Position numbers and translations under genes: made by a program. DNA of 41,996 nt from a virus. Lineage: Duplodnaviria; Heunggongvirae; Uroviricota; Caudoviricetes. The notes under the pieces were generated by a model that worked only from the letters and a program-made list of their open reading frames with translations, ran no database searches and had not been told where the DNA came from. Positions 1 through 38,517 of this stretch are shown piece by piece. Position 1 is the stretch's first letter. Each line of letters starts with the position of its first letter. The DNA is taken from the IMG/VR virus record IMGVR_UViG_2681813224_000020, one strand, 5' to 3'.

Positions 1-267
1 ATGCGCAGAAAAGAGTCAAACGTTAGCAGTTTGCCGGAACTCACCAATTTTGAGGTAAGCTATTCTCTGGTTACCAATGAAGTTTACTTGTCTGCATCCT
101 TCACTGATAACATGGCCTGTATACCAAACTGGCCCTTACAAGAATTTCCGGATCAACTAATATGCATTTCTCGAGCAAAAGCTGTTGCCCTAATCGAAGA
201 GCTCCAGAAGACCATCAACTATATGGATGCAGGAATAGATCGAAGTTCAGGTAGCCTTCTCCAGTAG
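1..267 (+). CDS. 3' fragment of an unknown ORF (start may lie outside the window); hypothetical protein
   Basis: Open frame from base 1 to the stop at 265..267; AT-rich by eye; no recognisable motif. Confidence 0.3.
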   Translation: MRRKESNVSSLPELTNFEVSYSLVTNEVYLSASFTDNMACIPNWPLQEFPDQLICISRAKAVALIEELQKTINYMDAGIDRSSGSLLQ

Positions 268-327
268 CTGACGAGTTTTATAATAATTTGATATATATAT
301 ATCGTTCAATATTAGCGAGTACTTATA

Positions 328-975
328 ATGAGTGAATTTAGTAATCTTTTAAATAGCATACCTGGATGGTTATCCTCCTCCCTCACAGCTCTAGTTGGTA
401 CTCTTATTGGCGGATGGTTTACCCTAAAAGGAGTTACCCAACAAGCTAAGCTGTCTAAAGTAGAGACAGAAAGAGAATCCCTTGAATTACAACTTTCAGT
501 ATTAAAAGGAGTTAAGGGAGAAGTTTTCACCCTAATCAATTTATATAATAAAAGGATGAAAACACACATTGATAATATAAAACCGGGACAAATGTTGATT
601 CTCACATTCCCTGTAGGGGATGATAATTTCACATTCTATGAGCAAAATGCGAATGTCATTGCAAAACTAAATGATTCTGCTAGAGACTCAATAATTAACA
701 TATACACATATTCACGCTCATTAATACAATCATTTAAAGGAAACAACAAACTCATTGAGGATTATGAAAAAATCCTTATTGGCATGGCAGACAATAACAA
801 AGATAAAACCATGTATAAGAGATTACATGATGCAAAAATAAATATAATGGTAGATTATGCTCAAGGGATAAAAAATATTGATGCAGAGCTAAGAGATGCT
901 GTCAATAAGGGATTCGACATTATCGACCAAGAAGTAAAGTCACTACAAATGAAATTAAACAAATTAGCTTCATAG
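328..975 (+). CDS. Hypothetical membrane-anchored protein, AT-rich cargo gene next to the invertase
   Basis: 215-aa ORF; hydrophobic segment LTALVGTLIGGWFTL near the N-terminus, then a charged helical region; codon usage is visibly more AT-rich than the phage structural genes. Confidence 0.5.
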   Translation: MSEFSNLLNSIPGWLSSSLTALVGTLIGGWFTLKGVTQQAKLSKVETERESLELQLSVLKGVKGEVFTLINLYNKRMKTHIDNIKPGQMLILTFPVGDDNFTFYEQNANVIAKLNDSARDSIINIYTYSRSLIQSFKGNNKLIEDYEKILIGMADNNKDKTMYKRLHDAKINIMVDYAQGIKNIDAELRDAVNKGFDIIDQEVKSLQMKLNKLAS

Positions 976-1020
976 AATGCTCCACTCCCTGTTCAATATT
1001 TTTACAAGCTTATCAGCCAG

Positions 1021-1053
1021 CCGTGGCACGTTCTTGCATACGACGTGCTACGG
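1021..1053. terminator. Hairpin between convergent genes (possible bidirectional terminator)
   Basis: CCGTGGCACGT-N11-ACGTGCTACGG, an 11-bp inverted repeat with one mismatch, between the stop of 328..975 (+) and the stop of the invertase (-). No strong T-run. Confidence 0.3.
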
Positions 1054-1055
1054 TT

Positions 1056-1610
1056 TCATTTATCTCCGACCGGAAACTTCTTATACAAAGTCGATACGCC
1101 AACATCATAAATGATCGCCACCTTCTGGCGAGGAACTCCTGATGCAATTAGTCGCCCGGCCTGCGCCCATTGTTCTGGTGTAAGTTTGGGACGACGTCCA
1201 CCAATTCGTCCCTGTGCGCGAGCAGCTTCCAGTCCAGCTTTTGTTCGTTCAACAATCAGTTCTCGTTCCATTTCAGCCAGGGCCCCCATCACATGAAAGA
1301 AAAAACGCCCCATCGGTGTGCTGGTATCAATAGCATCCGTCAGGCTGCGAAAATTAACGCCACGTTCGCGCAACTCCTCAACCAGAATGACCAGATGCCG
1401 CATACTACGCCCCAGCCGATCCAGCTTCCAGACAACCAGAGTGTCACCTGCCGATAATGTCCTGAGCAGTTTTTTCAGTCCCGGCCTTTCGGACTTTGTA
1501 CCGCTTATCTTGTCTTCAAAAATCAGCTCGCATCCTGCACAGTTCAGCGCATTACGTTGTAGATCTGTGTTCTGGTCATTTGTTGACACACGTACATAGC
1601 CAATAAGCAT
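1056..1610 (-). CDS. pin: Site-specific DNA invertase, serine recombinase of the Hin/Gin/Cin/Pin family
   Basis: Translation MLIGYVRVSTNDQNTDLQRNAL... with the catalytic Ser motif YVRVSTNDQ and a C-terminal HTH. Start taken at the internal Met (ATG 1608..1610) preceded by GGGAGA; the ORF track extends to 1646. About 184 aa, the size of Pin. Adjacent to tail-fibre genes. Confidence 0.9.
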   Translation of the reverse strand: MLIGYVRVSTNDQNTDLQRNALNCAGCELIFEDKISGTKSERPGLKKLLRTLSAGDTLVVWKLDRLGRSMRHLVILVEELRERGVNFRSLTDAIDTSTPMGRFFFHVMGALAEMERELIVERTKAGLEAARAQGRIGGRRPKLTPEQWAQAGRLIASGVPRQKVAIIYDVGVSTLYKKFPVGDK

Positions 1611-1664
1611 GGTAGATCTCCCTGACAAAAGCAGGAATGATGCCATTTGCTCGTTATTTCTGCA

Positions 1665-1690
1665 TTTTCATAAACGTTGGTTTGGGAGAA
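1665..1690. repeat. Left recombination (crossover) site of the invertible segment, gix/hix-like
   Basis: TTTTCATAAACGTTGGTTTGGGAGAA; its reverse complement matches 3530..3555 at 20 of 26 positions, including a perfect 14-bp block TTGGTTTGGGAGAA. Internal dyad symmetry as expected for Din-family sites. Confidence 0.65.
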
Positions 1691-2038
1691 GCGGCGAAAA
1701 GGGATGTGGGCACAGGAGAAAATCAGATACCGGATATGTCAGCCTGGAAAAGAAATCCGAGTTCTAATCGCTGGAGAAAATTGCCTGATGGAACCATCAT
1801 TCAAATGGGAATATCAGCATCAGGGCCATTAGGCTCACCTGTAAATATCACCCTGCCGATATCTTTCAGCAATACCAATTATTGTGTTGTTGCATCGTAC
1901 GATAATGCACGGTCAGGTGTGTCAACAATGGTTAGTTTTGCAGCGTTACCTGTTTCACCATCGCAATTTTCCCTGATGTCATCTGTGACTGAGCAAGGAA
2001 TAAATCCTTTTGCTTACTGGATTGCTTTTGGAGATTAA
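1665..2038 (+). CDS. Alternative (currently silent) tail-fibre C-terminal variable exon; expressed only after inversion fuses it to the constant 5' part of the tail-fibre gene
   Basis: Same frame as ORF 1637..2038; NVGLGEA junction matches ENLGLGEG of the active gene; downstream sequence KLPDGTIIQMG... is typical of fibre tips. The ATG at 1637 is probably not a real start. Confidence 0.55.
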
Positions 2039-2041
2039 TAA

Positions 2042-2461
2042 ATGGATAGATACTTCTATTCACAAAAAGAAAATGGTTTTTTTACCGATTTAAATAAAGC
2101 ACCTTCAGATGCTGTTGAGATAACCACGGATGAATGGCTGTTACTACTGGATGGTCAGGATAATGGCATGAAAATAGTCAGCAATCAGGAGGGATATCCG
2201 GTTTTGACAGAGCAACCACCTTTATCAAAAGAAAACCTTATTGCATTGGCGGATTTGAAAAAAAGAAAACTTATTAATGAAGCCAACGAGCACATGAACA
2301 GCAGACAATGGCCAGGTAAAGCGGCTATTGGTCGTCTGAAAAGTGAGGAACTGGCGCAATATAATTTATGGCTGGATTATCTGGACGCACTGGAACTGGT
2401 TGATACCTCCAGTGCGCCAGATATTGAATGGCCTACGCCTCCGGCAGTTCAGGCCAGATGA
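2042..2461 (+). CDS. Tail-fibre assembly protein (alternative copy, Tfa')
   Basis: 139-aa ORF directly after the alternative fibre exon; C-terminal [26 protein letters not shown] parallels the C-terminus of the opposite-strand Tfa ([24 protein letters not shown]). Confidence 0.7.
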   Translation: MDRYFYSQKENGFFTDLNKAPSDAVEITTDEWLLLLDGQDNGMKIVSNQEGYPVLTEQPPLSKENLIALADLKKRKLINEANEHMNSRQWPGKAAIGRLKSEELAQYNLWLDYLDALELVDTSSAPDIEWPTPPAVQAR

Positions 2462-3038
2462 CATCCGGCGCGGTGCTGGTATCTGTTGCAGTCACCGCGT
2501 CAATGTAATCCAGCACGGCGTTAAGTCGGGTTGTTTCTGTCTGCGTCAGTTTACGTGCGGCCTGCAATTTCAGCTGAATCAGACTGATGGAAGCCATTGC
2601 AGCATCAATCAGTGACTGACGCTGTGCTTCTGCCGCGTCTACTGCGGCGCTATGCTGTGCCTCAGTATCGGTCACCCATTTCTCACCATCCCATTTATCG
2701 TATGGCGTTAATGGGGCGATAGTGGTTGTATTTTCAGGGTAATCACCCGGAACTGTGATTTCTTTGGTATCTCCCGTTTCGGTACTATAGACAACTTCAC
2801 CGCGATGGTCTGGCACATATTCCCATGAGTTTAAATCTGCCGAACGACAGATTGCATAACCAGCTTTATGTGTACCTGGTGCATCCAGACAGGAACATGC
2901 CGGGATACCGACGCCGACAGCGAGATATTCAGTTGATGTAGAAATATATTCCCGCGTTTCACCATCATAATTATAAACGGTAATATCTCCCGCTTTTATG
3001 GCAATGAGTTCGCTATTTAATACAGCTTTATTCATCAT
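2433..3038 (-). CDS. Tail-fibre assembly protein (Tfa) for the currently expressed fibre
   Basis: 201-aa ORF immediately downstream of the tail-fibre gene; conserved Tfa C-terminal motif. Confidence 0.75.
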
Positions 3039-3898
3039 GCGGCCCTCACAATATAATTAAAAGCGATGTTACGAGGACGAGTTTCTGTACCTACATTTTC
3101 ACTAATTTCACCATAACGTTTAACACTACGAGAGCTAAGAGCTCGTAGTGAGGAAGGCACCTTAAGACCGGGTTCGTCCGTTTTAACTATTCCCCCGTCA
3201 CCGTATGTAGCCAGTATTCCTGGGTTTACGCCTTCCCGTGCACTTCCTGCGGCGAGTCCGTCCCCTGTCCATAATTCCATATAGTGTGCATGGTCCAAAA
3301 TTGTGTGTGGCTGCCAATTAAGCAAAGCGCGACCAGTATCAATCCCGCGACCGTCATCCCAGCCACGAATAAATTCACCGCGTAAATCAGGCAATTTATT
3401 GGTCGGGTAAGCCTTTGCCAGTTCCGGGTATTCTTCAGCAGAAAAAGCCGCACCATTGCATTTCAGCCAGCCTGTCGGCGGAGTGGCTGAAGGCCACGGA
3501 ACAGGCACCCCAACCGGTAATGCAGAGCCTTCTCCCAAACCAAGGTTTTCGAGAGCCGTTTTCACCGTGCCATCCGATTTGATATCGCCAAACGGATTCT
3601 TGCGGCTCAGGTATTCAACAGCAAACCCCGATCCCAGCAATTCAACAAAACCGGGCAGATCACCATTATCAAGCACATCCCGTTGCGTTTTATCACTTAC
3701 AAACTGGGCCAGAGCTGCAGCAATAAAGCTGGCCTGCCGAATAACCTTATTGACTTGCGCACTGGAGGCTTTCCCTGCTGTAAATCCAGATAAAAGCGCG
3801 GGCAACGCTTCCCATTCCTCCTGCGATATAACATTGGCATTTCGATCCGTTGCAAACGCTTTAAAGTCATTTTTCGCCATCAGAGTAATACTCCCCAT
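3035..3898 (-). CDS. Tail-fibre protein: constant N-terminal part 3556..3898, variable C-terminal part inside the invertible segment
   Basis: 287 aa; C-terminal collar-like motif [27 protein letters not shown]...[10 protein letters not shown]; gix-like site embedded at 3530..3555. Confidence 0.8.
3530..3555. repeat. Right recombination (crossover) site of the invertible segment, inverted relative to 1665..1690
   Basis: TTCTCCCAAACCAAGGTTTTCGAGAG lies inside the tail-fibre gene and encodes ENLGLGEG; the partner site encodes NVGLGEA in the alternative exon. Confidence 0.65.
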
Positions 3899-4560
3899 GC
3901 TCCTACATCAAAACCACTGATGAATTCGTTATCCATATCAAAACCAAAAAATTTTGAGCCTTCCGATGGGGTTTCCACCGAAGGTGTTTCAATGCCACCC
4001 GCCCATACCCCGGCGGCTTTTACTGTGAGATACCCCTGTTTAATTGCCGCAATTAACTCACGCGATACATCTGAAATATCAGTATCAGGAAAGACCCAGA
4101 CCGATATCGTCATGTCCTGGTTATCGACTATCTGCATTCGCAGTCCGGATCCTGCTGTTGCCGCGTCAAGAATTGCCGGAAGCGAATCATTCCGTCCGTC
4201 CCAGTTATTAATCGCAATCTTCGCTTTAAGGATGACACGATAAGTTTCATCGCTGAGGTACATGTATCCGGAATCAGGATCGTATGGCCCCTGCCATACA
4301 CCCTGATCATATCCAAGCCCGTCGGTATCCCAGCTGAAATAGACACCTGAAATAGGCTGGCTGACAACACGGCTACGTCCGATCCACAATCCCAGAATGT
4401 CAAGTTGCACACCAACCGCAGAGTCAATATCAAATGCAGTAATCAGCCCTCTGGTGGCAGCCGCAACATCAATAAGCGGCCGGGTCATCAGATCAACATG
4501 TGCAAGAAATTTAGGTTTGGTGGCGTGGTAGTTCGTGATTAGTTCGGTGTATTTGCTCAT
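3880..4560 (-). CDS. Baseplate/tail protein (P2 gpI / Mu gp48-like)
   Basis: 226-aa ORF between the baseplate J-like gene and the tail fibre; the position is the main evidence. Confidence 0.55.
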
Positions 4561-5756
4561 GACTCCACCGTTATAACGATATTTTCCGGGGTACAGGACG
4601 CAGATTCGTTGTATCTGATATCAATGTTTGATGACGACAAAGCCCCCGGGGATTTCCCAATCGTCAGTTCCTGAATATCGTAATAGCGTGCATTCCCGCC
4701 ACTCACCACGCCAAGATTCGCCGGTGAGTAAATGCGACTTAAAAGGACCGAATCACCAATCATCAGACTATTGATATAGTCGGAAATAGCCTGCTGGATC
4801 TGCTGCCCTATCTGTGAGGTATAACCCGTAAAAACTTTTAATTTAATCCGGGCATAAACAGGCACATCACTGGAACGCGAAAATTTGATTACATGGGGAT
4901 TGCCGTATTTATCCGGAACCGTAACGGATGTTGTACCGTGAGTGGCTGTTCCCTGGCCTTTATTCCCTCTGATAGCCTGAGCAATATCCGTCACATCACC
5001 GCCATCCACAATTACAGCAACAGAGTGTGGCGGTAACCCGTTACCGTCCTCCGAACCATTATCGTTTTCATAGAGTTTGTGGCGGGTTACACCGGTAACA
5101 TTAGAAACAGCACCATCCAGTGCTTCAAATGGGGTTATTGATGGCAACGCAACACTTTGCGACTGGCGGATACGTAACTCAGCGTCAGTTTCTGCCGGAG
5201 TGCCTACAGTAGCCGCAGCAGGATTAGTTACCGAAACCCAGCCACGGGTTGGCGTATTAATTTCAGTGATAGTTCCAGCCAGCGCCGCCACTGCACCACT
5301 GACGGAACATGTTGCGGTCACCATCACTGTACCATCCACGCCGACCACCACTGAAGCAGGCAAACGCCATATCACATTATTACTGTCTTTCACGCTGCCA
5401 TTAATGATGGTTGTTCCGGCAGTTCCTGTAAGAAGCAAATCAACCGTAGAATTCGTCGCGCCTTTACGTGAAATACCATTTATTTTCACGTTACTGGTCA
5501 GTGCGGCCCCATAGCCGGTTGCCGGTGAAAAACAGTTGTAGACAGTTATCGCAGTATTATTGGCATCATGAATCGCCAGCGCCATCAGAGCCACCATCTG
5601 GCCGTCTTTACTATCCGGTTCGAGGTAGGCATCACTACCATAAATCTGCTGAAAATAGCTAATCAGGGTGCTGAGTATCGTCTGATAATCAGGCGCACTG
5701 ATCCCCTCCGCGGTTACCTTTGCAGATAAACCGAGAGAATCAAGGTTCAGAGCCAT
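4557..5756 (-). CDS. Baseplate J-like protein (baseplate wedge)
   Basis: 399-aa ORF in conserved V-W-J order; Gly/Thr/Val-rich beta-type sequence; overlapping stop/start with neighbours. Confidence 0.7.
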   Translation of the reverse strand: MALNLDSLGLSAKVTAEGISAPDYQTILSTLISYFQQIYGSDAYLEPDSKDGQMVALMALAIHDANNTAITVYNCFSPATGYGAALTSNVKINGISRKGATNSTVDLLLTGTAGTTIINGSVKDSNNVIWRLPASVVVGVDGTVMVTATCSVSGAVAALAGTITEINTPTRGWVSVTNPAAATVGTPAETDAELRIRQSQSVALPSITPFEALDGAVSNVTGVTRHKLYENDNGSEDGNGLPPHSVAVIVDGGDVTDIAQAIRGNKGQGTATHGTTSVTVPDKYGNPHVIKFSRSSDVPVYARIKLKVFTGYTSQIGQQIQQAISDYINSLMIGDSVLLSRIYSPANLGVVSGGNARYYDIQELTIGKSPGALSSSNIDIRYNESASCTPENIVITVES

Positions 5757-6109
5757 TACGCCTCCGATGTAACAGTCGTTATTCCATAAAGAGTGTCGAT
5801 TTCAGCGGAAAACATGACACGTCGGGTCGTGGTATCCACTGTCGTATTGAAAGAGAGGATTGATTTAACGCCCCGCGTTTCGAGGATGCGCTTACGGATC
5901 GCCAGGTTGTAGGTTTCCGGCTTCTGCTTACCGAGCACAGACTGGATCCACGGAGTCCCTTCGGTGGTGTCGAGAAACCATTGCCCATACCACAATTCGA
6001 ATCGCGTTTTCACAGCCTGTGCTACGGCCTCAGGCGAGTTAATCAGCCAGGTGTCATCACCGCTGCCAAAGGTGTAATCGCCATCGGCGTCTTCACGTCT
6101 GTATCGCAT
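5756..6109 (-). CDS. Baseplate protein (P2 gpW / T4 gp25-like)
   Basis: 117-aa ORF between the V-like and J-like genes; size and position typical. Confidence 0.6.
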   Translation of the reverse strand: MRYRREDADGDYTFGSGDDTWLINSPEAVAQAVKTRFELWYGQWFLDTTEGTPWIQSVLGKQKPETYNLAIRKRILETRGVKSILSFNTTVDTTTRRVMFSAEIDTLYGITTVTSEA

Positions 6110-6861
6110 CAGTTTACCCCATCAGTATTGCTTCCGCCGCGCTGAACACCACCATGAGTGTGCGTATCATCGATTGGCTTGCCGTTAGCCTTCACGCTCC
6201 CCAAAAACTCAACAGCACCAGTGATTTTTGAAGCCACACCAGAAACCACAGACCCCACCATGCCCCCCAACCAGGTTAACAGGCCATGAATGGTTACTTT
6301 CTCAGAAAAATCAGCCAGAGGGGTAACCACATCAAGACCACCCGGAGCGACAATTTTAATTTTCCCGGTATCAGGATTAAGCTCAAAATAGGTGCTGCCA
6401 TCGTCACTACGCAACTGTGTGGCACTGGTATTAATACCGCTAATCTTCCTTGCCTGCGACTGGGGACCGACAATACAAAACGCATCCGATAAATCATGCA
6501 TTCTGTCATCAACCGGCTCCTGTATCCCGCCGTTCTGCCACCAGAAATCGATGCAGCGATCGGCAAAAATCACCAGGCATTCATCGCCGGCTTCCACCGG
6601 GAAAGTTAACGTGCAGCCGCCGCCGCGCGGAAATATCACCGGCACATCCACCAACAGCGGGTAATTTTGGGTAATGCGGTTGCCGTCATTATCCTTTTCA
6701 ACCGAACGGATAGCAGGCTGCACAACTGCCGTCACCGCATCAGGATCGAATGACTGAATAATGCCAGGCAAGGCGACACGGATCTGGTTCTTTGTTGTTT
6801 CCCGTTCAGATTTGAATGTTTCGGCAAGGTCGCCGCTGCGGGTCTGGTCAGATACGGCCAT
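6109..6861 (-). CDS. Baseplate assembly protein V-like (central spike/hub)
   Basis: 250-aa ORF upstream of the W-like and J-like genes; Gly-rich C-terminus. Confidence 0.55.
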   Translation of the reverse strand: MAVSDQTRSGDLAETFKSERETTKNQIRVALPGIIQSFDPDAVTAVVQPAIRSVEKDNDGNRITQNYPLLVDVPVIFPRGGGCTLTFPVEAGDECLVIFADRCIDFWWQNGGIQEPVDDRMHDLSDAFCIVGPQSQARKISGINTSATQLRSDDGSTYFELNPDTGKIKIVAPGGLDVVTPLADFSEKVTIHGLLTWLGGMVGSVVSGVASKITGAVEFLGSVKANGKPIDDTHTHGGVQRGGSNTDGVN

Positions 6862-6880
6862 TTAGTAGGCTCCAGAAAGC

Positions 6881-6910
6881 AAAAAACCCGCCTGGTGGCG
6901 GGTTTGATTT
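6881..6910 (-). terminator. Rho-independent terminator closing the moron operon (minus strand)
   Basis: Stem CCCGCC / GGCGGG with loop TGGT; on the minus strand it is followed by TTTTTT. Lies between the small ORF (6923..7096) and the V-like gene. Confidence 0.6.
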
Positions 6911-6922
6911 ATAAGAACTTCA

Positions 6923-7096
6923 CTAACTATCTTTCTTGGGAAAAGTTGAAGGCTTGTCGTGATAGCTTTCCGTCATAATTTCGATATCCCCGAAAGGTAC
7001 TCTAGCCATAATCTCTTGCTCATAGTTATCTAGGAAAGAGACCTCAGGCTCACTTGGTTTAGGTTGTGGTTCATTTTGGTCTTCTGGACAGGACAT
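6923..7096 (-). CDS. Small acidic hypothetical protein (57 aa), second gene of the moron; absent from the ORF track (under 60 aa)
   Basis: Hand translation MSCPEDQNEPQPKPSEPEVSFLDNYEQEIMARVPFGDIEIMTESYHDKPSTFPKKDS; ATG at 7094..7096 lies 2 nt after the stop of the upstream membrane-protein gene; followed by the terminator. Confidence 0.35.
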   Translation of the reverse strand: MSCPEDQNEPQPKPSEPEVSFLDNYEQEIMARVPFGDIEIMTESYHDKPSTFPKKDS

Positions 7097-7098
7097 AT

Positions 7099-7629
7099 TC
7101 AAACCTTACTTATTAACATGCACGTTACAGAAATAATAAAAAATACAAATGACATAACCATCCATCGAAACAACTCATTTACAAACGCTGATTTTTCTTT
7201 ATGGATTTTCTCGATTCTATCAATAGCCCTACCATACATTATCAAATGAAATCTGACTGTGTCATCTCTACTACCCCTCAGAAGAAATTCATGTTGTTCA
7301 GGTGTTCGATGCACAGGCATTTTGGGAATATTTCTAAGTTCCCAACATTTCCATAAATAATAAAAACAAAAAACCAAACATACAAAACATGAACATAGAC
7401 ACAATAGAGACAATCTTGCGGATAGACTAGTCTTTAACTGTTGTCCCAGCTCAAAGGACCCAAAAACGGCTAATAATGCAGAAATCTCAACACCAAGCAC
7501 AGCAAGAAGAAAATTAGCTTTGTCCTCTAACCGCCTGTATGTTGTCTTAACTTCTTCATACCTGTCTCTCGAGTACGACAAAATCGTATCTACTTCAAGG
7601 CCAACAGCCTCATTCCTTTGATTGCACAT
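7099..7629 (-). CDS. Hypothetical integral membrane protein (AT-rich moron inside the baseplate gene cluster)
   Basis: 176 aa; N-terminal charged helix, then hydrophobic stretches FLLAVLGVEISALLAVFGSF, LSLLCLCSCFVCLVFCFYYLW and FRWMVMSFVFFIISVTCMLI; clearly AT-rich against flanking tail genes. Confidence 0.6.
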   Translation of the reverse strand: MCNQRNEAVGLEVDTILSYSRDRYEEVKTTYRRLEDKANFLLAVLGVEISALLAVFGSFELGQQLKTSLSARLSLLCLCSCFVCLVFCFYYLWKCWELRNIPKMPVHRTPEQHEFLLRGSRDDTVRFHLIMYGRAIDRIEKIHKEKSAFVNELFRWMVMSFVFFIISVTCMLISKV

Positions 7630-7635
7630 ATTGTA

Positions 7636-7989
7636 TTAATCGTCAACCTTCTTACAAGGAAACGAACCTATGATTCTCGGCGCATCCATGCTGTTCTGCA
7701 GTAGTTGGACATTCAAGAAACGCGTTTCGGTACCCGGACGGCGAATGAACTCGAAACCGTAATTGTTACCGTCTTTGGCTGGCATAAGCCCCATATCCGC
7801 CTTCATTCCATTACCGTTGCCGAGCGTTTTGATTTTCTGGGAGGTAACTGTCTCACCATTAATCCTGAACAATGAATCAGGAATCAACTCTAATTTGTAG
7901 CCACCACACTGAAGCGTGACACCGCCAGGATTCGCAGCAAATGCGAACCCCGGAAGGAAACAGAGTCCAATAACAATCCACTTTTTCAC
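7636..7989 (-). CDS. Small secreted/periplasmic hypothetical protein
   Basis: 117 aa; signal peptide MKKWIVIGLCFLPGFAFA/ANPGG; start overlaps the stop of the hub-like gene at 7989. Confidence 0.55.
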   Translation of the reverse strand: MKKWIVIGLCFLPGFAFAANPGGVTLQCGGYKLELIPDSLFRINGETVTSQKIKTLGNGNGMKADMGLMPAKDGNNYGFEFIRRPGTETRFLNVQLLQNSMDAPRIIGSFPCKKVDD

Positions 7990-9056
7990 TATCCTACCTC
8001 ACGCTGTAAAGACGACGCCGAACGAAGATCCGCCGCACCGCGCGCTTCGCACATCATATCCATGTACCACGCCTGGCCCCTTGTGTCGCCAGTGTACATA
8101 ATCCCGCGCACAATATAAACGCCATCCGTTGCGATGCTGGCAGGCTGCGATATGGTGCCGCTTAGCGTAATATTTCCGTCCGTGTTCTGGTCGGTGATCT
8201 GCCCACCAGCCATAGCGATATCGTTGTTCGACAACGCGGTGCGATATACGGAAGCCTGATCCAGTTGAATGAGCCCATTAACCCGGATGTTCGGATTAAT
8301 AAGCGCGCGGACGTTTACGCCGTTGCCGATGGTCTGCTGCGGCATGCCAATAAGCCCGGTAGCGCTGTTGAGCACAATCGCTTCGTGAACATATTCATTA
8401 TTCACCACCATCTGGCGCTGACCATCCACGAATTGCCATGTTGCGCCACATTGCCCGGCTACGTTATCCATTAGATGCCGCGTCATGCCAAAGAGCACCC
8501 GCCCCCGGGGGAATACAGTAGCAGGCATTTCAGGCGTCAGGCCTTCGGTCGCACCTTTGGCTTCGAAGTCTTTCATCAGCGCACGGTTCACATCAGCGAC
8601 CGTGTAACCGGCAGCCAGCGTCTGTGAGGTTATACTGGTGGCAAAAGCCAGATCAGTATCTGCTGCCTGAATCAGGACGTAGGAATCAACCGGACTGTCT
8701 TTTCCTGTGACCGAGTAGCGAATTTCACCGCTGAAAATCAGTCCGTAGTTGCGGCCATCTCTCTGGCCCACGTCCGCCGCGTCAACTTCCCGCACGGTCC
8801 CTACGTCGCTTGCTGACACCTCCGGCGCGATACCGTCGTAACCGGCAATCAGACGCACTTTCGAAAATTCCTGCCCGGTGATTCGGTTCACAGTATCTGC
8901 CGAGAGGTTATAAATTTTGATAGTCCCTACCCGGGACGCGCTGCTGATGTTGAACCAGTCGATCGTAAAGGTGACTTTGAAATCACTTAGCTCAATTCCC
9001 TGACCGTTCCCGTCCACAAGCTGCAGCTCGAAATGTCTCATCCAGTTCTGTGACAT
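7989..9056 (-). CDS. Tail/baseplate hub protein (P2 gpD / Mu gp44-like)
   Basis: 355-aa ORF downstream of the tape-measure gene and two small tail genes; the position is the main evidence. Confidence 0.5.
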   Translation of the reverse strand: MSQNWMRHFELQLVDGNGQGIELSDFKVTFTIDWFNISSASRVGTIKIYNLSADTVNRITGQEFSKVRLIAGYDGIAPEVSASDVGTVREVDAADVGQRDGRNYGLIFSGEIRYSVTGKDSPVDSYVLIQAADTDLAFATSITSQTLAAGYTVADVNRALMKDFEAKGATEGLTPEMPATVFPRGRVLFGMTRHLMDNVAGQCGATWQFVDGQRQMVVNNEYVHEAIVLNSATGLIGMPQQTIGNGVNVRALINPNIRVNGLIQLDQASVYRTALSNNDIAMAGGQITDQNTDGNITLSGTISQPASIATDGVYIVRGIMYTGDTRGQAWYMDMMCEARGAADLRSASSLQREVG

Positions 9057-32614: not shown

Positions 32615-32704
32615 CCCTTCTTCATAGACGCCCGGTTACACGCCGGGCGAGATCCAAAAAGCTATTGGAATTTTTACGGCTATTTGTTTTTATAGAGGTA
32701 TTAC

Positions 32705-34207
32705 GTGTCAACTTTGAGAATCGGTATGGAAATCCAAGAGTTTGTAAGTCACTATAAAAACCACCCTGTTCTATTCATTGGAACAGGATTTAGCCTACGG
32801 TATCTAGAAAACTCATTTAGCTGGGATGGTCTTCTTTTGAGTGTCGCAATGGAACTAACCGGTAATGCTGAGTTTTACTACGATTTGAAAGCTGAAAGCC
32901 TAGAAGGTGACGACTATCGATATGATATCTTAGCTACAAAACTTGAAGATATTTTTAATAAAAAGCTGGCAGAAGACCGTAACGGTAAGTTCAAAGACAT
33001 CAATGATGTTTTCTATGAGCACATGAAAAAAGGAAAAAAACTAAGTCGATTCAAAATTTATTTAACTTCAATACTTAAAGACCTAAAGATAAAAGAGTCA
33101 ATGATGGAGGAAATAAACAGCTTAATAAAAACAAGAAAAAACATAGGCTCCATCATTACAACAAACTACGACCAACTCGTAGAGAATATCTTCGAATTTA
33201 ACCCACTGATTGGTAACAACATTCTTTTAAGTAACCCATACGGTTCAGTTTACAAAATACATGGCTGTGTTAGTGATCCTAACAACATAATTATCACAGG
33301 TGAAGACTACGCAAACTTCGACAATAAATATGAGTTAATTCGCGCTCAATTACTCTCAATATTCATACACAACCCTATCATATTTATAGGGTATAGTATT
33401 AGCGATAAAAACATTAAGTACTTATTAAAAACCATATTCTCATACGTTGACTTAAATACCGAACTTGCAAAAAGGATAAAAGATAATTTCCTTTTGGTTG
33501 AATACGAAAAAGACAGCATGTCAACTGAAATTACGGAGCATGACATAGATATAGAAGGCATGTCTATCATAAGAATAAACAAAATAAAAACAAACAATTA
33601 CAAAGCTGTATATGATGCCATCTCTGGACTAGTTTTGCCAGTATCCGCAATGGACATAAGAAAGGTTCAAAAAGTTTGGAGTACCATCAAAAGTGGTGGT
33701 GAGATAAAGGTTAAAATTACAGAAAATTTAGATGAACTTCGCAATGATGAAATGGTCATTGCTGTTGGTTCAGAAAGAACCGTACAATATGTTTATCAAA
33801 CAAAATCTGAAATGATACAGAACTATTTTAAAATAGTTGACGAAGCAAACTCTCAGCTTATCGCATTACTGAATAAGCAAACCATAGCTAATAGCGAACA
33901 CTTTCCAATATACGCTTTTAGTTCTATCTGCCCTGAACTAGAAAATACCGAGACATACAGAAAACGGCAGCTAGATAAAATCATTGGTAACCTTTCTCGA
34001 ATTAAAACATGTAAGAGTGAGGCTGTGTCTATTGATGAAATACTAAAAGAAACGAAAGAGTATAAAGTTGCTAACACGATTATGTATTGCGTACTAAACG
34101 ATACTATTTCATTGAAACAACTACGAGATTATTTAACAAAACCAGGGCATAAAATTGATACCCAATACAGGCGACTTTTATGCTTGTATGATTATTTATC
34201 ATATTAA
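32705..34207 (+). CDS. SIR2-like (SIR2_2 / DUF4020-type) protein with a C-terminal domain of unknown function; candidate NADase-type anti-phage defence gene, AT-rich insertion
   Basis: 500 aa; motifs in order PVLFIGTGFS, SWDGLL, IITTNYDQLVE, YKIHGCVSDPNNIIITGEDY, NPIIFIGYSISDKN match the hallmark pattern of the defence-associated SIR2 family; codon usage is strongly AT-rich against its flanks; GTG start with RBS AGAGG; own terminator. Confidence 0.7.
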   Translation: MSTLRIGMEIQEFVSHYKNHPVLFIGTGFSLRYLENSFSWDGLLLSVAMELTGNAEFYYDLKAESLEGDDYRYDILATKLEDIFNKKLAEDRNGKFKDINDVFYEHMKKGKKLSRFKIYLTSILKDLKIKESMMEEINSLIKTRKNIGSIITTNYDQLVENIFEFNPLIGNNILLSNPYGSVYKIHGCVSDPNNIIITGEDYANFDNKYELIRAQLLSIFIHNPIIFIGYSISDKNIKYLLKTIFSYVDLNTELAKRIKDNFLLVEYEKDSMSTEITEHDIDIEGMSIIRINKIKTNNYKAVYDAISGLVLPVSAMDIRKVQKVWSTIKSGGEIKVKITENLDELRNDEMVIAVGSERTVQYVYQTKSEMIQNYFKIVDEANSQLIALLNKQTIANSEHFPIYAFSSICPELENTETYRKRQLDKIIGNLSRIKTCKSEAVSIDEILKETKEYKVANTIMYCVLNDTISLKQLRDYLTKPGHKIDTQYRRLLCLYDYLSY

Positions 34208-34228
34208 GCATTCTTAACTTCGGTTATA

Positions 34229-34256
34229 AAAAGCCGCCATTTTGGCGGCTTTTTAT
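34229..34256 (+). terminator. Rho-independent terminator after the SIR2-like gene
   Basis: AGCCGCCATTTTGGCGGCT followed by TTTTATTTATT. Confidence 0.55.
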
Positions 34257-34283
34257 TTATTAAATCCAACGGGTCCTTACTTG

Positions 34284-36359
34284 ATGCAAAAACTTTGGTT
34301 AGACCTCGAAACTTTCAGCGAAATCCCAATAAAAAACGGCACCCATGTCTATGCAGAAGGAGTCGAAATCATGTTATTCGCATGGGCAATCGACGAAGAC
34401 CCCGTCAGCGTACACGATTTAACCACAGACTATAACTTGCCGACACGACTACTGACAGCTCTCAGCGATGAGAGCGTACTAATATATGCACACAACAGCC
34501 ATTTCGATCGCACCATGTTGCGCCATGCATTACTGCACACTCCCCAATGTGTTGTTGCAGGTAGTGCCAAACGCTGGCGAGACACAATGGTACAGGCGCT
34601 GGCGCATGGTCTCCCGGGGTCTCTGGGGGAACTCTGCGAAATACTCGGCGTCCCGCAAGACAAAGCGAAGGACAAAGAAGGTAAAGCGCTGATCCAGCTG
34701 TTCTGTAAGCCCCGCCCGAAAAACAGCAAACTGCGCCGTGCCACCAGCAAAACCCACCCGGAAGAATGGCGGCGCTTTGTTGCTTACGCCGGACTGGATA
34801 TCGAGGCAATGCGCGAAGTCTATAAACGTCTGCCGAAGTGGAATTATCAGGGGACAGAGCTGGCGCTCTGGCATCGTGATCAGCAGATCAACGACCGGGG
34901 CGTCTGCATGGACATGCAACTCGCGCGCGCTGCGATCGAAGCGGTAGACCAGGAGCAAAAGCGCCTGGCAAAGCGTACACAGGAAATGACTGATGGCGAA
35001 GTGCAGGCAGCCACACAACGGGACGCGTTGATTAAGCACATTGTTGAATCCTACAGTGTGGAGCTACCAGACATGCAACGCAGTACTCTGGAACGTCGTA
35101 TTGCCGACCCCGATTTACCATCTGCCGTGAAAGAACTGCTGGCTATCCGCCTGCAAGCCAGTACTACCAGCACCAGTAAATACAAGGCACTGATGAAAGG
35201 CGTAAGCCACGACGGGCGCTTACGCGGTACGCTACAGTTCTGCGGGGCGTCACGTACCGGTCGTTGGGCCGGACGGCTATTCCAGCCCCAGAACCTTCCC
35301 CGCCCTTCACTAAAACAGGAACAAATAGACGAAGGCATCGAAGCACTGAAAGCCGGATGTGCAGACCTGCTGTTTGACAATATCATGGAACTAACCAGTT
35401 CAGCGTTACGTGGCTGCATTATCGCGCCAACAGGCAAAAAACTGGTGGTAAGTGACTTGTCAAACATTGAAGGCCGTATGCTGGCATGGCTGGCGGGAGA
35501 AGAATGGAAACTGAATGCATTCAGAGAGTACGACGCCGGAACGGGTCCGGACTTATATAAACTGGCGTATGCAAAAGCTTTCGATATTGCACCAGATGAT
35601 GTTGATAAACACATGCGTCAGATCGGTAAAGTCATGGAACTCGGTCTGGGTTATGGAGGTGGTGTATCGGCTTTCATCACTTTTGCTCTGGTTTACGGTC
35701 TCGATCTCGACGAGCTGGCGAACGCCGCACTGCCAAACATTCCCCGCGATGTTATCCGCGAGGCGAAAAGCTGGTACGACGAATCGGTTAAACGTAAGTC
35801 GACCTTTGGCCTTTCCGAGCGTGTATTCATCGCATGTGACTCGCTCAAGCGCCTGTGGCGCAGGGCGCACCCGGCGACCTGCGATTTCTGGTACGAGCTG
35901 GAGCGCACTGTCCGCACAGCAATCGCCACACCGCAAAAAACATTGTATTGCGGTTATCTTAAAATCCGACGTGATGGCGCGTGGCTGCGCATACAGCTAC
36001 CATCCGGACGCGCTGTATGCTACCCGTCTCCGGTTATCGAAAAAGGGAATATCACCTATATGGGTGTTAACTCTTATTCGCGTAAATGGCAACGACTCAA
36101 AACCTACGGCGGAAAGCTGGTGGAGAACGTCACCCAGGCGGCCGCCCGCGACGTTCTGGCCGGAAACATGCCGCTTATCGAAGATGCCGGTTACAGCATT
36201 GTGTTGACGGTACACGACGAGGTGATCACCGAAGCACCTGACACAGAAGATTTCAACGATAAAGTGCTTTCCGCGCTTCTCTCCACTAACCCCGAATGGG
36301 CGCCCGATATCCCACTGAACGCTGGCGGTTTTGAGGCGTACCACTACCGTAAGGATTAG
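34284..36359 (+). CDS. Family-A DNA polymerase (3'-5' exonuclease plus polymerase domains)
   Basis: Exo I LDLETFSE; motif [19 protein letters not shown]; motif [17 protein letters not shown]; motif C TVHDEV. Start taken at [11 protein letters not shown] (ATG 34284); the ORF-track start 34242 lies inside the upstream terminator. Confidence 0.85.
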
Positions 36360-36412
36360 CTGCTCGCTGTCATTGCTGCTTTGCTAAATATTGCTTATTT
36401 TATAGGAAAATA

Positions 36413-37174
36413 ATGATGCAGGATCTCAATGAAATGGCTCTCAAATACCCACACCCTGTCGAAACTTTTCGTCAATTTTTAGTCGAATCCGGATTTGATG
36501 TTACCGGAGAAGAAAACAAAGCCGGTCATGATTGTTATCGTTTAAGTAATGGTGCCATCATAACGCTTTACCACACCGGAACGATTTTGATTCAAGGCTC
36601 ACAAGCGGCAAAACCAGAGGTTGAAGCCATTATTAATGAACACTTGGGTAACGCGCCAGCTCAACGAGTTCAGCCAGCCCCGGTTCAAGAGCCAGCCAAA
36701 AAGATTTTCATCGTTCACGGTCACGACCATGCAGCAAAAGAGCAGCTTGAGCTCATTCTTCATAAGCTTGGGTTACCTGATCATTTTATTTTGCAGAATA
36801 CAGGTGGTACTGGACTTACGATAATTGAAGAACTGGAGCGTGAAATTGGTCAAGGGCAGACAGCGACTCGTTTCGGCATTGTTCTTCTCACTCCCGATGA
36901 TGTGGGATACTCCAAAAGAGACGGTCAAGAAGCAGCCCTGCCCAGGGCTCGTCAAAATGTAGTTCTAGAAATGGGGATGTTGTTATCATCACTCGGCCGC
37001 AGTAACGTGGTCATCTTGCAGAAGCAACACCTTGAACAGCCTTCTGATGCTGCGGGTATTCTTTATCTCAACTTTAATGATCATGTTCGAGAAACTGTAC
37101 CTCGCTTAATCCAGCGCCTTAAACAGGCCGGTTTCACATTTAATGAAGCTCAAATAGCGAACGCTTCATCTTAA
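36413..37174 (+). CDS. Two-domain protein: small N-terminal domain plus C-terminal Rossmann-like nucleotide-binding domain resembling TIR-like / SLOG families; candidate accessory gene
   Basis: 253 aa; C-terminal domain motifs KKIFIVHGHDHAAKEQ, NTGGTGLTIIEELERE, FGIVLLTPDD; Pro/Gln-rich linker APAQRVQPAPVQEPA; RBS AGGAAA; own terminator. Family assignment is tentative. Confidence 0.4.
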   Translation: MMQDLNEMALKYPHPVETFRQFLVESGFDVTGEENKAGHDCYRLSNGAIITLYHTGTILIQGSQAAKPEVEAIINEHLGNAPAQRVQPAPVQEPAKKIFIVHGHDHAAKEQLELILHKLGLPDHFILQNTGGTGLTIIEELEREIGQGQTATRFGIVLLTPDDVGYSKRDGQEAALPRARQNVVLEMGMLLSSLGRSNVVILQKQHLEQPSDAAGILYLNFNDHVRETVPRLIQRLKQAGFTFNEAQIANASS

Positions 37175-37195
37175 TCAATCATTTTTCTAAAAAGT

Positions 37196-37228
37196 AAATA
37201 CCCCTGCAAATGCAGGGGTATTTATTTG
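37196..37228 (+). terminator. Rho-independent terminator after the TIR/SLOG-like gene
   Basis: ACCCCTGCAAATGCAGGGGT followed by ATTTATTTG. Confidence 0.55.
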
Positions 37229-37239
37229 AGGTAACCCCT

Positions 37240-37461
37240 ATGTCATTTAAATATCGGGACAGTCCGCTTTATTATCGGACTGCACAGGAGGCTTTGCGCC
37301 TTGAGCAGTCCGGCGAGTATGACCGGGCGGCGAAGGTCTGGGCCAAAGCAAACCGTGAATCACGTAACGAACTTAATCAGGACTGGAGAGAGCGCCGGGC
37401 TGATTCTTGCCTGATGCAGAACATGCGTGAAAAGCGTAAGGCGGTGGATGATGGCCTATGA
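37240..37461 (+). CDS. Small hypothetical protein
   Basis: Start MSFKYRDSPLYY (ATG 37240) preceded by GAGGTAA; overlaps the VRR-NUC start; the ORF-track start 37210 lies in the terminator stem. Confidence 0.35.
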   Translation: MSFKYRDSPLYYRTAQEALRLEQSGEYDRAAKVWAKANRESRNELNQDWRERRADSCLMQNMREKRKAVDDGL

Positions 37462-37732
37462 ACGTGAAAGCCTTATCGAAAAGCATCTCGTCGCTGAAGT
37501 GAAAAAAGCTGGCGGGGTTGCCTTTAAGTTCGTATCTCCCGGTCGCCGCTCGGTACCGGATCGCATTGTTCTGCTACCCGGCGGTCGCATCGTTTTCGTT
37601 GAATGTAAATCCCCCGGCAAACCACCACGACCTGACCAGTTGCGCACACATGAACGTCTGCGAAAGCTGGGCTTTACCGTGGTGGTACTGGATAGCAAAG
37701 AGCTGGGGGGAATTATTCCCCCCAATACTTAG
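37451..37732 (+). CDS. VRR-NUC domain nuclease
   Basis: PDRIVLLPGGRIVFVECKSPGKPPRPDQLRTHERLRKLG matches the VRR-NUC (PD-(D/E)xK) core; start at MAYERESL; typical partner of SNF2 helicases in phage modules. Confidence 0.7.
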   Translation: MAYERESLIEKHLVAEVKKAGGVAFKFVSPGRRSVPDRIVLLPGGRIVFVECKSPGKPPRPDQLRTHERLRKLGFTVVVLDSKELGGIIPPNT

Positions 37733-37876
37733 TTATGGTTTTTTGGGTGGTGGAGCTGGCTGGGAAGTTTGCTTCGAAGGTTGAAAACCATTATTAGCCA
37801 AGTCATTTTTAGGCTGATACCCTTTTTCAATAGGGGTATATCCATCTTCCTTATAACTTCTTTTGGTATCTGACAT
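37733..37876 (-). CDS. Small Pro/Lys-rich hypothetical protein (47 aa), translationally coupled to the upstream membrane-protein gene; absent from the ORF track
   Basis: Hand translation MSDTKRSYKEDGYTPIEKGYQPKNDLANNGFQPSKQTSQPAPPPKKP; its ATG shares one base with the TGA of the 206-aa gene (TGATG overlap). Confidence 0.3.
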   Translation of the reverse strand: MSDTKRSYKEDGYTPIEKGYQPKNDLANNGFQPSKQTSQPAPPPKKP

Positions 37877-38496
37877 CAGTTGCTTTCTCCATTATTGCAT
37901 GTTGGTAGTTCAAAACGGAAAAACTCTAAATTTTCTATATCGTTACCTAAAATTAATATTCCTAATGTTGAAACTCGAGGGCGTTCAAATCCCCCATCAT
38001 CGTTTAGAACCCAATGTTCCTCAAGATAAATTTGCTCTGGCTCTGGTGCACTGGAAGCAAATGAGTTAGCCCCAAACTTGCCTGCTATTTTTTTACCATT
38101 TTTTAGCGTAATAATCATCCAACAGGGGACTTTTAACCCAAAGAAATAATCCCAAGCTCTTCCGGTAGGATGTGGCATATAATTACATAACCAACGCCAA
38201 GTTCGCATCCAAGAGAAAAATATCGTTAACAATATTGGGCTAATGAATAAAATCACCAAGTATAAAGCACAATAAAGAACAGGATGTTTGAGATATACAC
38301 CCTCAGATTCTATAAAATATATAGGAGCAAACCATACTGCGTAATTTATACAGCTATAAGAAACAATTTCCACAATCGCTTTAGAAGTATCAAAAGCGGT
38401 ATTAGGATGAATAACACTATAAACTTTCATACTTATAAAACCAGGAATAACGAAAAGCAAAAATATAATAATTTTACTTTTTTCCCAAATATCCAT
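37876..38496 (-). CDS. Hypothetical integral membrane protein, AT-rich antisense moron inside the early replication operon
   Basis: 206 aa; hydrophobic segments IIIFLLFVIPGFI, AVWFAPIYFI, VLYCALYLVILFISPILLTIFF, then a soluble C-terminal domain; RBS AGGGG; opposite strand to all neighbours; strongly AT-rich. Confidence 0.6.
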   Translation of the reverse strand: MDIWEKSKIIIFLLFVIPGFISMKVYSVIHPNTAFDTSKAIVEIVSYSCINYAVWFAPIYFIESEGVYLKHPVLYCALYLVILFISPILLTIFFSWMRTWRWLCNYMPHPTGRAWDYFFGLKVPCWMIITLKNGKKIAGKFGANSFASSAPEPEQIYLEEHWVLNDDGGFERPRVSTLGILILGNDIENLEFFRFELPTCNNGESN

Positions 38497-38517
38497 TTTA
38501 ACCCCTAATCTCAGAAT

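Follow-up and report, generated by a model that had tools for sequence, protein, structure and literature searches.

Evidence for an intact Pin-type tail-fibre inversion switch closing the tail operon of a complete prophage

Knowledge of the Pin/P-segment switch goes back to the 1980s and, judged from its sequence, the locus described here is a further copy of that known system and not a new one. In Escherichia coli K-12, the P segment is carried by e14 (pinE, stfP-tfaP/tfaE-stfE), with a gene order of invertase, leader, exon, tfa, tfa, exon and constant part that is shared with our locus. The Gin/G-segment system of phage Mu follows a comparable plan: the Sc part is constant, the alternative exons Sv and Sv′ and the chaperones U and U′ form opposed pairs, the invertase gene lies just outside the segment and an enhancer lies in the 5′ coding part of that gene (a candidate, in our case); however, the G segment is ~3 kb and the Mu fibre ~500 aa, whereas the segment described here is 1.87 kb and its fibre 232–281 aa. 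The Cin/C-segment system of P1 is larger again (C segment 4.2 kb, fibre ~990 aa) and has its invertase on the other side, with cixL overlapping the 3′ end of cin, while the related Min system of p15B has six crossover sites against two here. The Hin/H-segment system of Salmonella uses the same recombinase family and mechanism; however, the element that Hin inverts is a flagellin-gene promoter, and the hin gene lies inside the segment, whereas our locus swaps coding exons and its invertase lies outside. The enhancer of Din systems acts in cis and comprises two Fis sites approximately 48 bp apart.

The window (i.e. the whole stretch of viral DNA analysed, 41,996 nucleotides) comprises the whole of a myovirus-like prophage of 41 kb, which ends at yfhL and has complete modules for head, tail, lysis, replication and integrase. 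We consider it very probable that the tail operon of this complete prophage ends in an intact site-specific inversion switch of the Pin type (Hin/Gin/Cin/Pin, 'Din') and, as the window holds a whole prophage, fibre-tip switching is the likely function of the cassette. In contrast, e14 is a defective remnant without a working tail. The two also differ in their surroundings: a baseplate DUF2612/wedge gene is found in the window and YmfQ in e14, and beyond the invertase, the window encodes an uncharacterised 215-aa protein where e14 carries mcrA.

The invertase gene (1056..1610, minus strand) encodes a protein of 184 aa with a Ser9 nucleophile and a C-terminal helix-turn-helix (HTH). Its true start is MLIGYVRV, and the longer ORF beginning at 1646 is an over-extension. 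Pfam domains were detected for Resolvase (E value 8.7e-52) and HTH_7 (E value 3.6e-14), and the protein is identical to K-12 PinE at 177/184 residues (96%), to Cin at 149/180 (83%) and to Gin at 141/180 (78%), matching the Gin structures 3UJ3/4M6F end to end (E value 1e-93). By sequence, it is a serine recombinase of the Din family (Hin/Gin/Cin/Pin), in agreement with the initial annotation, which had placed a Din-type invertase beside the segment and had made no mention of the known Pin/P-segment system. The catalytic residues Y5, R7, S9, D64, R65 and R68 are all kept, and the exact protein occurs in at least 1000 public contigs.

Two 26-bp crossover sites in inverted orientation were confirmed at the positions first proposed for them. 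The invertase-proximal (left) site is of the pix type (1665..1690) and reads TTTTCATAAACG-TT-GGTTTGGGAGAA, with its central TT at 1677–1678, while the invertase-distal (right) site (3530..3555) lies within the fibre gene and reads TTCTCCCAAACC-AA-GGTTTTCGAGAG, with its central AA at 3542–3543, or CTCTCGAAAACC-TT-GGTTTGGGAGAA as its reverse complement. Both sites are base-for-base identical to the P-segment sites of e14, the left site as it stands (TTTTCATAAACGTTGGTTTGGGAGAA) and the right site as its reverse complement (CTCTCGAAAACCTTGGTTTGGGAGAA). Compared as inverted repeats, the two sites match at 21 of 26 positions, and the arms extend to 20 nt at 95% when a repeat finder is applied. Their core is perfect, as had been reported, but it measures 15 bp (1677–1691/3529–3543), one base more than the 14 bp originally given. 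With up to two mismatches allowed, the 14-mer core was found at just two places in the 42 kb (0.46 hits expected by chance). A search of the window for a third site, as in the multi-inversion Min system, yielded none that was convincing, with the central 12 bp (≤2 mismatches) returning only scattered two-mismatch hits elsewhere. The sites also align with Mu gix and P1 cix in the same 12-2-12 layout, the half-sites all ending in AAACC, AAACG or ATACC. At the centre, gix carries TC where the window sites have TT; cix shares the TT, and its half-sites closely resemble those of the window (TTCTCTTAAACC in cix, compared with TTCTCCCAAACC).

Natural inversion breakpoints fall inside the left-site sequence in four E. 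coli genomes, and the right site also holds natural breakpoints. With an inverted repeat of 15–20 bp present, such inversions could conceivably arise by general homologous recombination, without site-specific recombination. However, the repeats have the Din 12-2-12 layout and are identical to proven Pin sites, a dedicated invertase gene is situated 55 bp from the left site and the inversions are exact in every pair of genomes examined. Moreover, 15–20 bp is far under the length that RecA-dependent exchange uses efficiently. We rejected homologous recombination as the cause of inversion on account of the short repeat, the Din-type sites and the exact inversions, and we give it next to no chance.

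From one crossover dinucleotide to the other, the segment measures 1867 bp, with a unique middle of 1837 bp (1797 bp is reported for e14). Outside it lies the constant N-terminal part of the tail fibre (3556..3880, minus strand; ~108 aa), which belongs to the last gene of the baseplate/tail operon, after the DUF2612/wedge and Baseplate_J genes. The fibre start at 3880 (MAKNDF...) was taken from gene calls in relatives, and over the 30 residues that lead up to the junction, the constant part shares 90% identity with residues 76–105 of StfP. The C-terminal exon that currently occupies the expressed position (tip A; 3035..3529, minus strand) contains a Pfam phage tail Collar domain (E value 2.6e-15) and is ~60% identical to e14 StfE. 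It is followed by a TfaE-like tail-fibre assembly gene (2433..3038, minus strand; 200–201 aa) with a Caudo_TAP domain (E value 2.3e-30) and 92% identity to e14 TfaE. In the opposite direction, the alternative C-terminal exon (tip B; 1676..2038, plus strand) is currently unjoined to the fibre N-terminus; it contains a Gp53-like_C domain (E value 1.3e-13) and is only 30% identical to its e14 counterpart, the C-terminus of StfP. Its TfaP-like assembly gene (2042..2461, plus strand; 139 aa) encodes a Caudo_TAP domain (E value 8.9e-26) and is 54% identical to e14 TfaP. Each exon is thus followed by its own assembly gene, as previously claimed; the 3′ end of the tip A assembly gene overlaps the tip B assembly gene by 29 nt, and the two assembly proteins are 37% alike over 65 aa. 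BLAST comparison of these tips and chaperones with those of Mu returned no match. The two tips fall in different domain families (Collar and Gp53-like_C), which would fit different receptors.

Translation confirmed that the right site lies inside the fibre gene and encodes ...ENLGLGE/G, and that the left site encodes NVGLGE/A at the opening of the alternative exon. Because both sites are read in the same codon phase, flipping the segment in silico gives an uninterrupted fibre of 232 aa (238 aa from an upstream ATG), in frame and with no stop, in place of the 281-aa fibre of the present orientation. This fusion, with an assembly gene behind each exon, supports the proposal that inversion would swap the fibre tip together with its chaperone. 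The fused form is called by gene callers in flipped genomes.

Both orientations are found in nature. The flipped fibre exactly as predicted occurs in 103 E. coli contigs in public collections and the 281-aa form in 189, and among complete E. coli genomes with ≥80% coverage, 17 carry the window orientation and 16 the flipped one. The best complete-genome match is 96%, which had raised the idea of an origin outside E. coli; that idea was discarded because the draft assembly GCA_012262965.1 is 100% identical to positions 1–8880 (8.9 kb). In GCA_012688505.1, the same prophage has 1672–3548 inverted between flanks that are 100% and 99.98% identical; likewise, the complete-genome pairs O103:H2 12009/129 and CX05/CX07 are identical in their flanks, and from site to site one member of each pair is the exact reverse complement of the other. 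Rather than a single orientation accompanied by inactivating mutations, public assemblies therefore hold both orientations of this allele, with the invertase and sites intact. In e14, the segment flips within clonal cultures (PMC4272514), and inversion of the crossover repeat TTGGTTTGGGAGAAGG by both PinE and PinQ has been demonstrated by qPCR and PCR (PMC12529663).

The O103:H2 strains 12009 and 129 share a 1-nt deletion (frameshift) in their local pinE, yet they differ in orientation. As the segment has flipped in these strains despite a broken pinE, finding the two orientations is no proof of action by the adjacent invertase, and action in trans does occur. The cassette could accordingly be a frozen relic, with a local invertase that is unexpressed or inactive and with strain differences that reflect rare trans events due to Din invertases encoded elsewhere in the genome. 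In line with this, E. coli genomes with any match have a median of two matching places, and no promoter was detected for the invertase: a promoter and terminator scan around the cassette returned hits not above shuffled expectation, and no sigma-70 promoter was recognisable for this gene. However, the system looks intact, as the initial annotation had it, with unaltered sites and a full-length invertase in which no catalytic residue is lost; PinE, with which it shares 96% identity, inverts identical sites when expressed (PMC12529663). Furthermore, the two orientations are about equally common in complete genomes and in contigs alike, as frequent flipping would give. We consider the relic very unlikely and favour an intact switch.

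A candidate recombinational (Fis) enhancer was recognised by homology in the 5′ end of the invertase gene (1521..1592; gene nt 19–90). This stretch is collinear with the 'enhancer of Cin-mediated C-segment inversion' annotated in the P1 record (cin nt 19–90), with 55/72 nt identical in a gap-free alignment that lies within conserved coding sequence. It contains two candidate G-N13-C cores with starts 49 nt apart, again in a conserved coding region, which we take to be positioned at 1575–1589 and 1526–1540. Extra synonymous conservation was sought in nt 19–90 of the window invertase, e14 pin, gin and cin, and no consistent excess was observed relative to the rest of the gene (e.g. 10/22 vs 54/114 codons). 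The invertase itself carries QAGRL at 150–154 (Q150, R153 and L154) together with K46, K47 and R50, which would be the counterparts of the Fis- and enhancer-contact residues of Hin if, as we assume, the Hin and Pin numbering is offset by one residue (Q151 to Q150 and so on). Contacts with Fis and the enhancer have been proposed for Q151, R154 and L155 of Hin and for its basic residues 47, 48 and 51 (PMC3798978). For the inversion itself, we infer both its dependence on Fis and an enhancer and its rate.

Taking these features together with the described systems, the switch would be expected to operate as follows. The 184-aa serine invertase would bind both 26-bp sites as dimers, cut at the central TT/AA dinucleotide and rotate the ends, thereby inverting the 1867-bp segment. 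The constant 5′ part of the fibre gene (3880–3556) would remain outside the segment, while the two opposed 3′ exons inside it, each with its own chaperone, would exchange places. In the present orientation, the fibre would be 281 aa long and have a Collar-domain tip, and its chaperone would be the TfaE-like protein; after inversion, it would be 232 aa long and have a gp53-like tip, and its chaperone would be the TfaP-like protein, such that a lysogen population would release two kinds of virion differing in receptor specificity. The Mu G and P1 C segments offer an analogy, from which this swap of tips would be predicted to change the host range.

A short ATG-initiated leader, MMPFARYFCIFIN (1637..1675, plus strand), runs across the left site into whichever exon adjoins the invertase (ORF 1637–2038 in the present orientation), and the same leader, MPFACYFFIFINVGLGE, is found at the start of stfE in e14. 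The leader-ORF product is annotated by gene callers in either orientation, and public protein sets contain each of the two exact products. In e14, inversion of the P segment creates StfE2, which lowers T2 adsorption (PMC12529663). Each orientation may, by way of this conserved 17-codon leader (ATG 1637), also yield a free, N-terminally truncated fibre tip of 133 or 182 aa, which in a lysogen could sit on a cell-surface receptor and keep out other phages, although we regard this as unlikely. A stronger version, in which the switch mainly serves the host and the invertase-adjacent exon is translated from ATG 1637 as a free, receptor-blocking tip that excludes phages, as the e14 chimera StfE2 is reported to do against T2, draws on the same observations and has a similarly small chance of being correct. 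Against it, the cassette scan found no promoter for the leader ORF, and tip B has just 30% identity to the StfP C-terminus. In addition, e14 is a defective remnant, whereas the window prophage has a full virion gene set, where the phage has a clear use for a fibre switch. The conservation of the leader also has another explanation, because the leader lies in a 54-nt stretch that must carry the invertase promoter and the crossover site as well. The roles in host exclusion and in switching of the phage fibre are nevertheless compatible, and neither excludes the other.

As a discovery, the fibre-tip switch carries little weight: pipelines already name the gene pinE, and the same prophage is present in both orientations in hundreds of public E. 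coli assemblies. Its value is for annotation: the fibre gene and the 'gp53-like' ORF should be treated as a single gene whose 3′ end comes in two versions, and the assembly of any strain carrying the cassette represents a mixed population. The locus is also a clean natural case of an e14-type cassette in a complete prophage, which makes it better suited than e14 to finding the binding partners of the tips and any role that the invertase-proximal ORF may play in the host. If the free tip is produced and acts as suggested, the switch would toggle the host range of the phage and the exclusion spectrum of the host together, and the StfE2 report for the defective e14 would be extended to a complete prophage.

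The invertase gene (1056–1610, minus strand) encodes a 184-aa protein with Pfam Resolvase catalytic and HTH_7 DNA-binding domains; an ORF start at 1646 was rejected as an over-extension, the true start being MLIGYVRVS. The initial annotation had described a complete Din-type fibre switch here, and the inverted 26-bp sites that it placed beside this gene are present at the positions reported: the left site (1665–1690, TTTTCATAAACG-TT-GGTTTGGGAGAA) lies upstream of the invertase gene, 55 bp from its start, and the right site (3530–3555, TTCTCCCAAACC-AA-GGTTTTCGAGAG) 1.87 kb from the left. When compared as inverted repeats, the sites are identical at 21/26 positions, including a core that is indeed perfect but 15 bp long rather than 14 bp; a repeat finder returned arms of 20 nt at 95 %. 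No further copies of the site 14-mer were detected in the 42-kb window with up to two mismatches allowed, and a search of the window using the 12 bp at the centre of the site revealed no convincing third site.

The fibre gene (3880–3035, minus strand; start MAKNDF) begins directly behind genes of the DUF2612/wedge and Baseplate_J types, crosses the right site and terminates in a tip with a Collar domain. A Caudo_TAP assembly gene (200 aa; 2433–3038, minus strand) comes next, while the second tip exon (1676–2038, plus strand; Gp53-like_C domain) begins at the left site and is followed by a 139-aa Caudo_TAP gene (2042–2461, plus strand), such that each tip exon has its own assembly gene, as first proposed. 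Codon phase is identical at both sites (xTT GGT TTG GGA GAA), and an in silico flip of 1677–3543 leaves the fibre reading frame open through to the end of the gp53-like tip (232 aa counted from MAKNDF, vs. 281 aa at present), in agreement with the predicted swap of the fibre tip.

Comparison with the e14 element of E. coli K-12 settles the identity of the system on the basis of invertase, sites and gene order. The window invertase shares 177/184 residues with PinE, both 26-bp sites match those flanking the e14 P segment base for base, the published P-segment crossover repeat TTGGTTTGGGAGAAGG is the core present in the window sites, and gene order is identical. The chaperones and tips display differing levels of identity (TfaE-like chaperone, 92 %; TfaP-like chaperone, 54 %; Collar tip vs. 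StfE, ~60 %; gp53-like tip vs. the StfP C-terminus, 30 %), and StfP shares 90 % identity with the 30 residues of the fibre constant part that adjoin the junction. Annotation pipelines call the window-type invertase gene pinE. The e14 P segment is inverted by PinE and PinQ (PMC12529663), and both orientations occur side by side in clonal K-12 cultures (PMC4272514). The window system is therefore an intact member of the characterised, already known Pin/P-segment family, confirming the original observation and supporting its interpretation.

Using gix and cix sequences from phage records, the alignment suggested in the initial annotation could be made: Mu gix and P1 cix align with the window sites as 12-bp half-sites (TTxTCxxAAACC) on either side of a 2-bp core; this core is TC in gix, and TT both in cix and in the window sites. 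The invertase has 78 % identity to Gin and 83 % to Cin, matches Gin crystal structures end to end, and has Q150, R153, L154, K46, K47 and R50 as counterparts of the Hin residues named as contacting Fis and the enhancer (PMC3798978). In the P1 record, cin nt 19–90 are annotated as the enhancer for inversion by Cin; the equivalent stretch of the window invertase gene (1521–1592) aligns with it without gaps (55/72 nt identical) and contains two candidate G-N13-C motifs with starts 49 nt apart. As this stretch is conserved coding sequence with no extra synonymous conservation relative to the rest of the invertase gene, homology is the one argument for a candidate enhancer here.

Complete E. coli genomes were queried with window 1000–4000 and its flipped construct (coverage ≥80 %), returning 17 in the window orientation and 16 in the flipped one. 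Base-by-base comparison of two pairs of near-identical strains (O103:H2 12009 vs. 129; CX05 vs. CX07) revealed identical flanks and a middle (1837 or 1810 bp) that is the exact reverse complement, with breakpoints within the same site sequences as the window's. Exact-sequence look-up found the present 281-aa fibre in 189 public contigs and the predicted 232-aa flipped fibre in 103; the invertase-proximal ORF was found in at least 1000 public contigs in its present form (133 aa) and as one NCBI nr entry in its flipped form (182 aa, WP_244586999.1). Window 1–8880 is 100 % identical to draft assembly GCA_012262965.1, while GCA_012688505.1 carries 1672–3548 inverted (2 mismatches) between flanks 100 and 99.98 % identical to the window. 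Exclusive occurrence of one orientation, together with inactivating mutations in the invertase or the sites, had been named as evidence against a switch; this exact allele is found in both orientations.

The pinE genes of O103:H2 12009 and 129 (1557–2110 in each of our loci, L001 and L002) share a 1-nt deletion and are annotated as frameshifted. Their segments are oppositely oriented despite this common deletion, so Din invertases encoded at other places in the genome can flip the cassette in trans, consistent with the known cross-reactivity of this family. The invertase-proximal product might, with low probability, have a host-side role: its short leader ORF (ATG 1637) crosses the left site and is common to e14 stfE, and StfE2, the equivalent chimera of e14, is reported to block adsorption of T2 (2025 paper, PMC12529663); however, a promoter/terminator scan around the cassette gave no support for expression of this ORF.

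In E. coli CP126934.1, an IS200/IS605-type element with Y1 transposase and TnpB-like genes (L012, 6299–7988) is located inside the invertible segment, in the expected place of the TfaE-like gene and part of the Collar tip, and is an example of cassette decay. The same invertase and segment module lies behind a YmfQ/GP46-type baseplate in CX05 and CX07 and, in our phage collection, occurs in P2-like and Klebsiella phages; as these baseplates are unrelated, the cassette moves between phage types as a unit.

The window represents a whole prophage of ~41 kb, 96–98 % identical to one located between yfhH and yfhL in E. coli O55:H7 CB9615. Two plus-strand ORFs (1–267, 88 aa; 328–975, 215 aa) at the end of the prophage, on the far side of the invertase, hold the place of mcrA in e14 and com/mom in Mu; they returned no Pfam or PADLOC matches and are both kept in related prophages. 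Several islands are absent from the CB9615 prophage. One (32649–34569) encodes a 500-aa SIR2-like protein (32705–34207, plus strand) in the replication module, between the DUF2815 and DNA polymerase genes, with matches to Pfam SIR2_2, the PADLOC candidate defence family PDC-S25 (E value 4e-158) and, more weakly, ThsA. A 253-aa TIR-domain protein (36413–37174, plus strand; matches to CAP12/Pycsar-type TIR and PADLOC PDC-S35, E value 2e-109) and a nearby 206-aa DUF6338 protein (37876–38496, minus strand) are likely prophage-borne defence cargo, as their genes lie in stretches (36356–37456 and 37700–38601) without a CB9615 counterpart. A further unshared stretch (6904–8027) is oddly placed amid the structural genes of the baseplate operon and contains three minus-strand ORFs (6923–7102, 7099–7629 and 7636–7989). 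Their products include one of 176 aa, which matches no Pfam family and is weakly PycTM-like (E value 2.6e-4), and one of 117 aa with an N-terminus resembling a signal peptide.

The prophage encodes terminase, portal, head, sheath/tube, baseplate, lysis, replication and integrase functions and is seemingly complete, whereas e14 is defective; the switch cassette closes the tail operon of an apparently complete myovirus. In Mu and P1, the classical function of such cassettes is to alternate the fibre tip and with it receptor specificity. Given its position in such a phage, we infer that the function of the cassette is best explained as in Mu and P1: exchange of the fibre tip would change receptor specificity.
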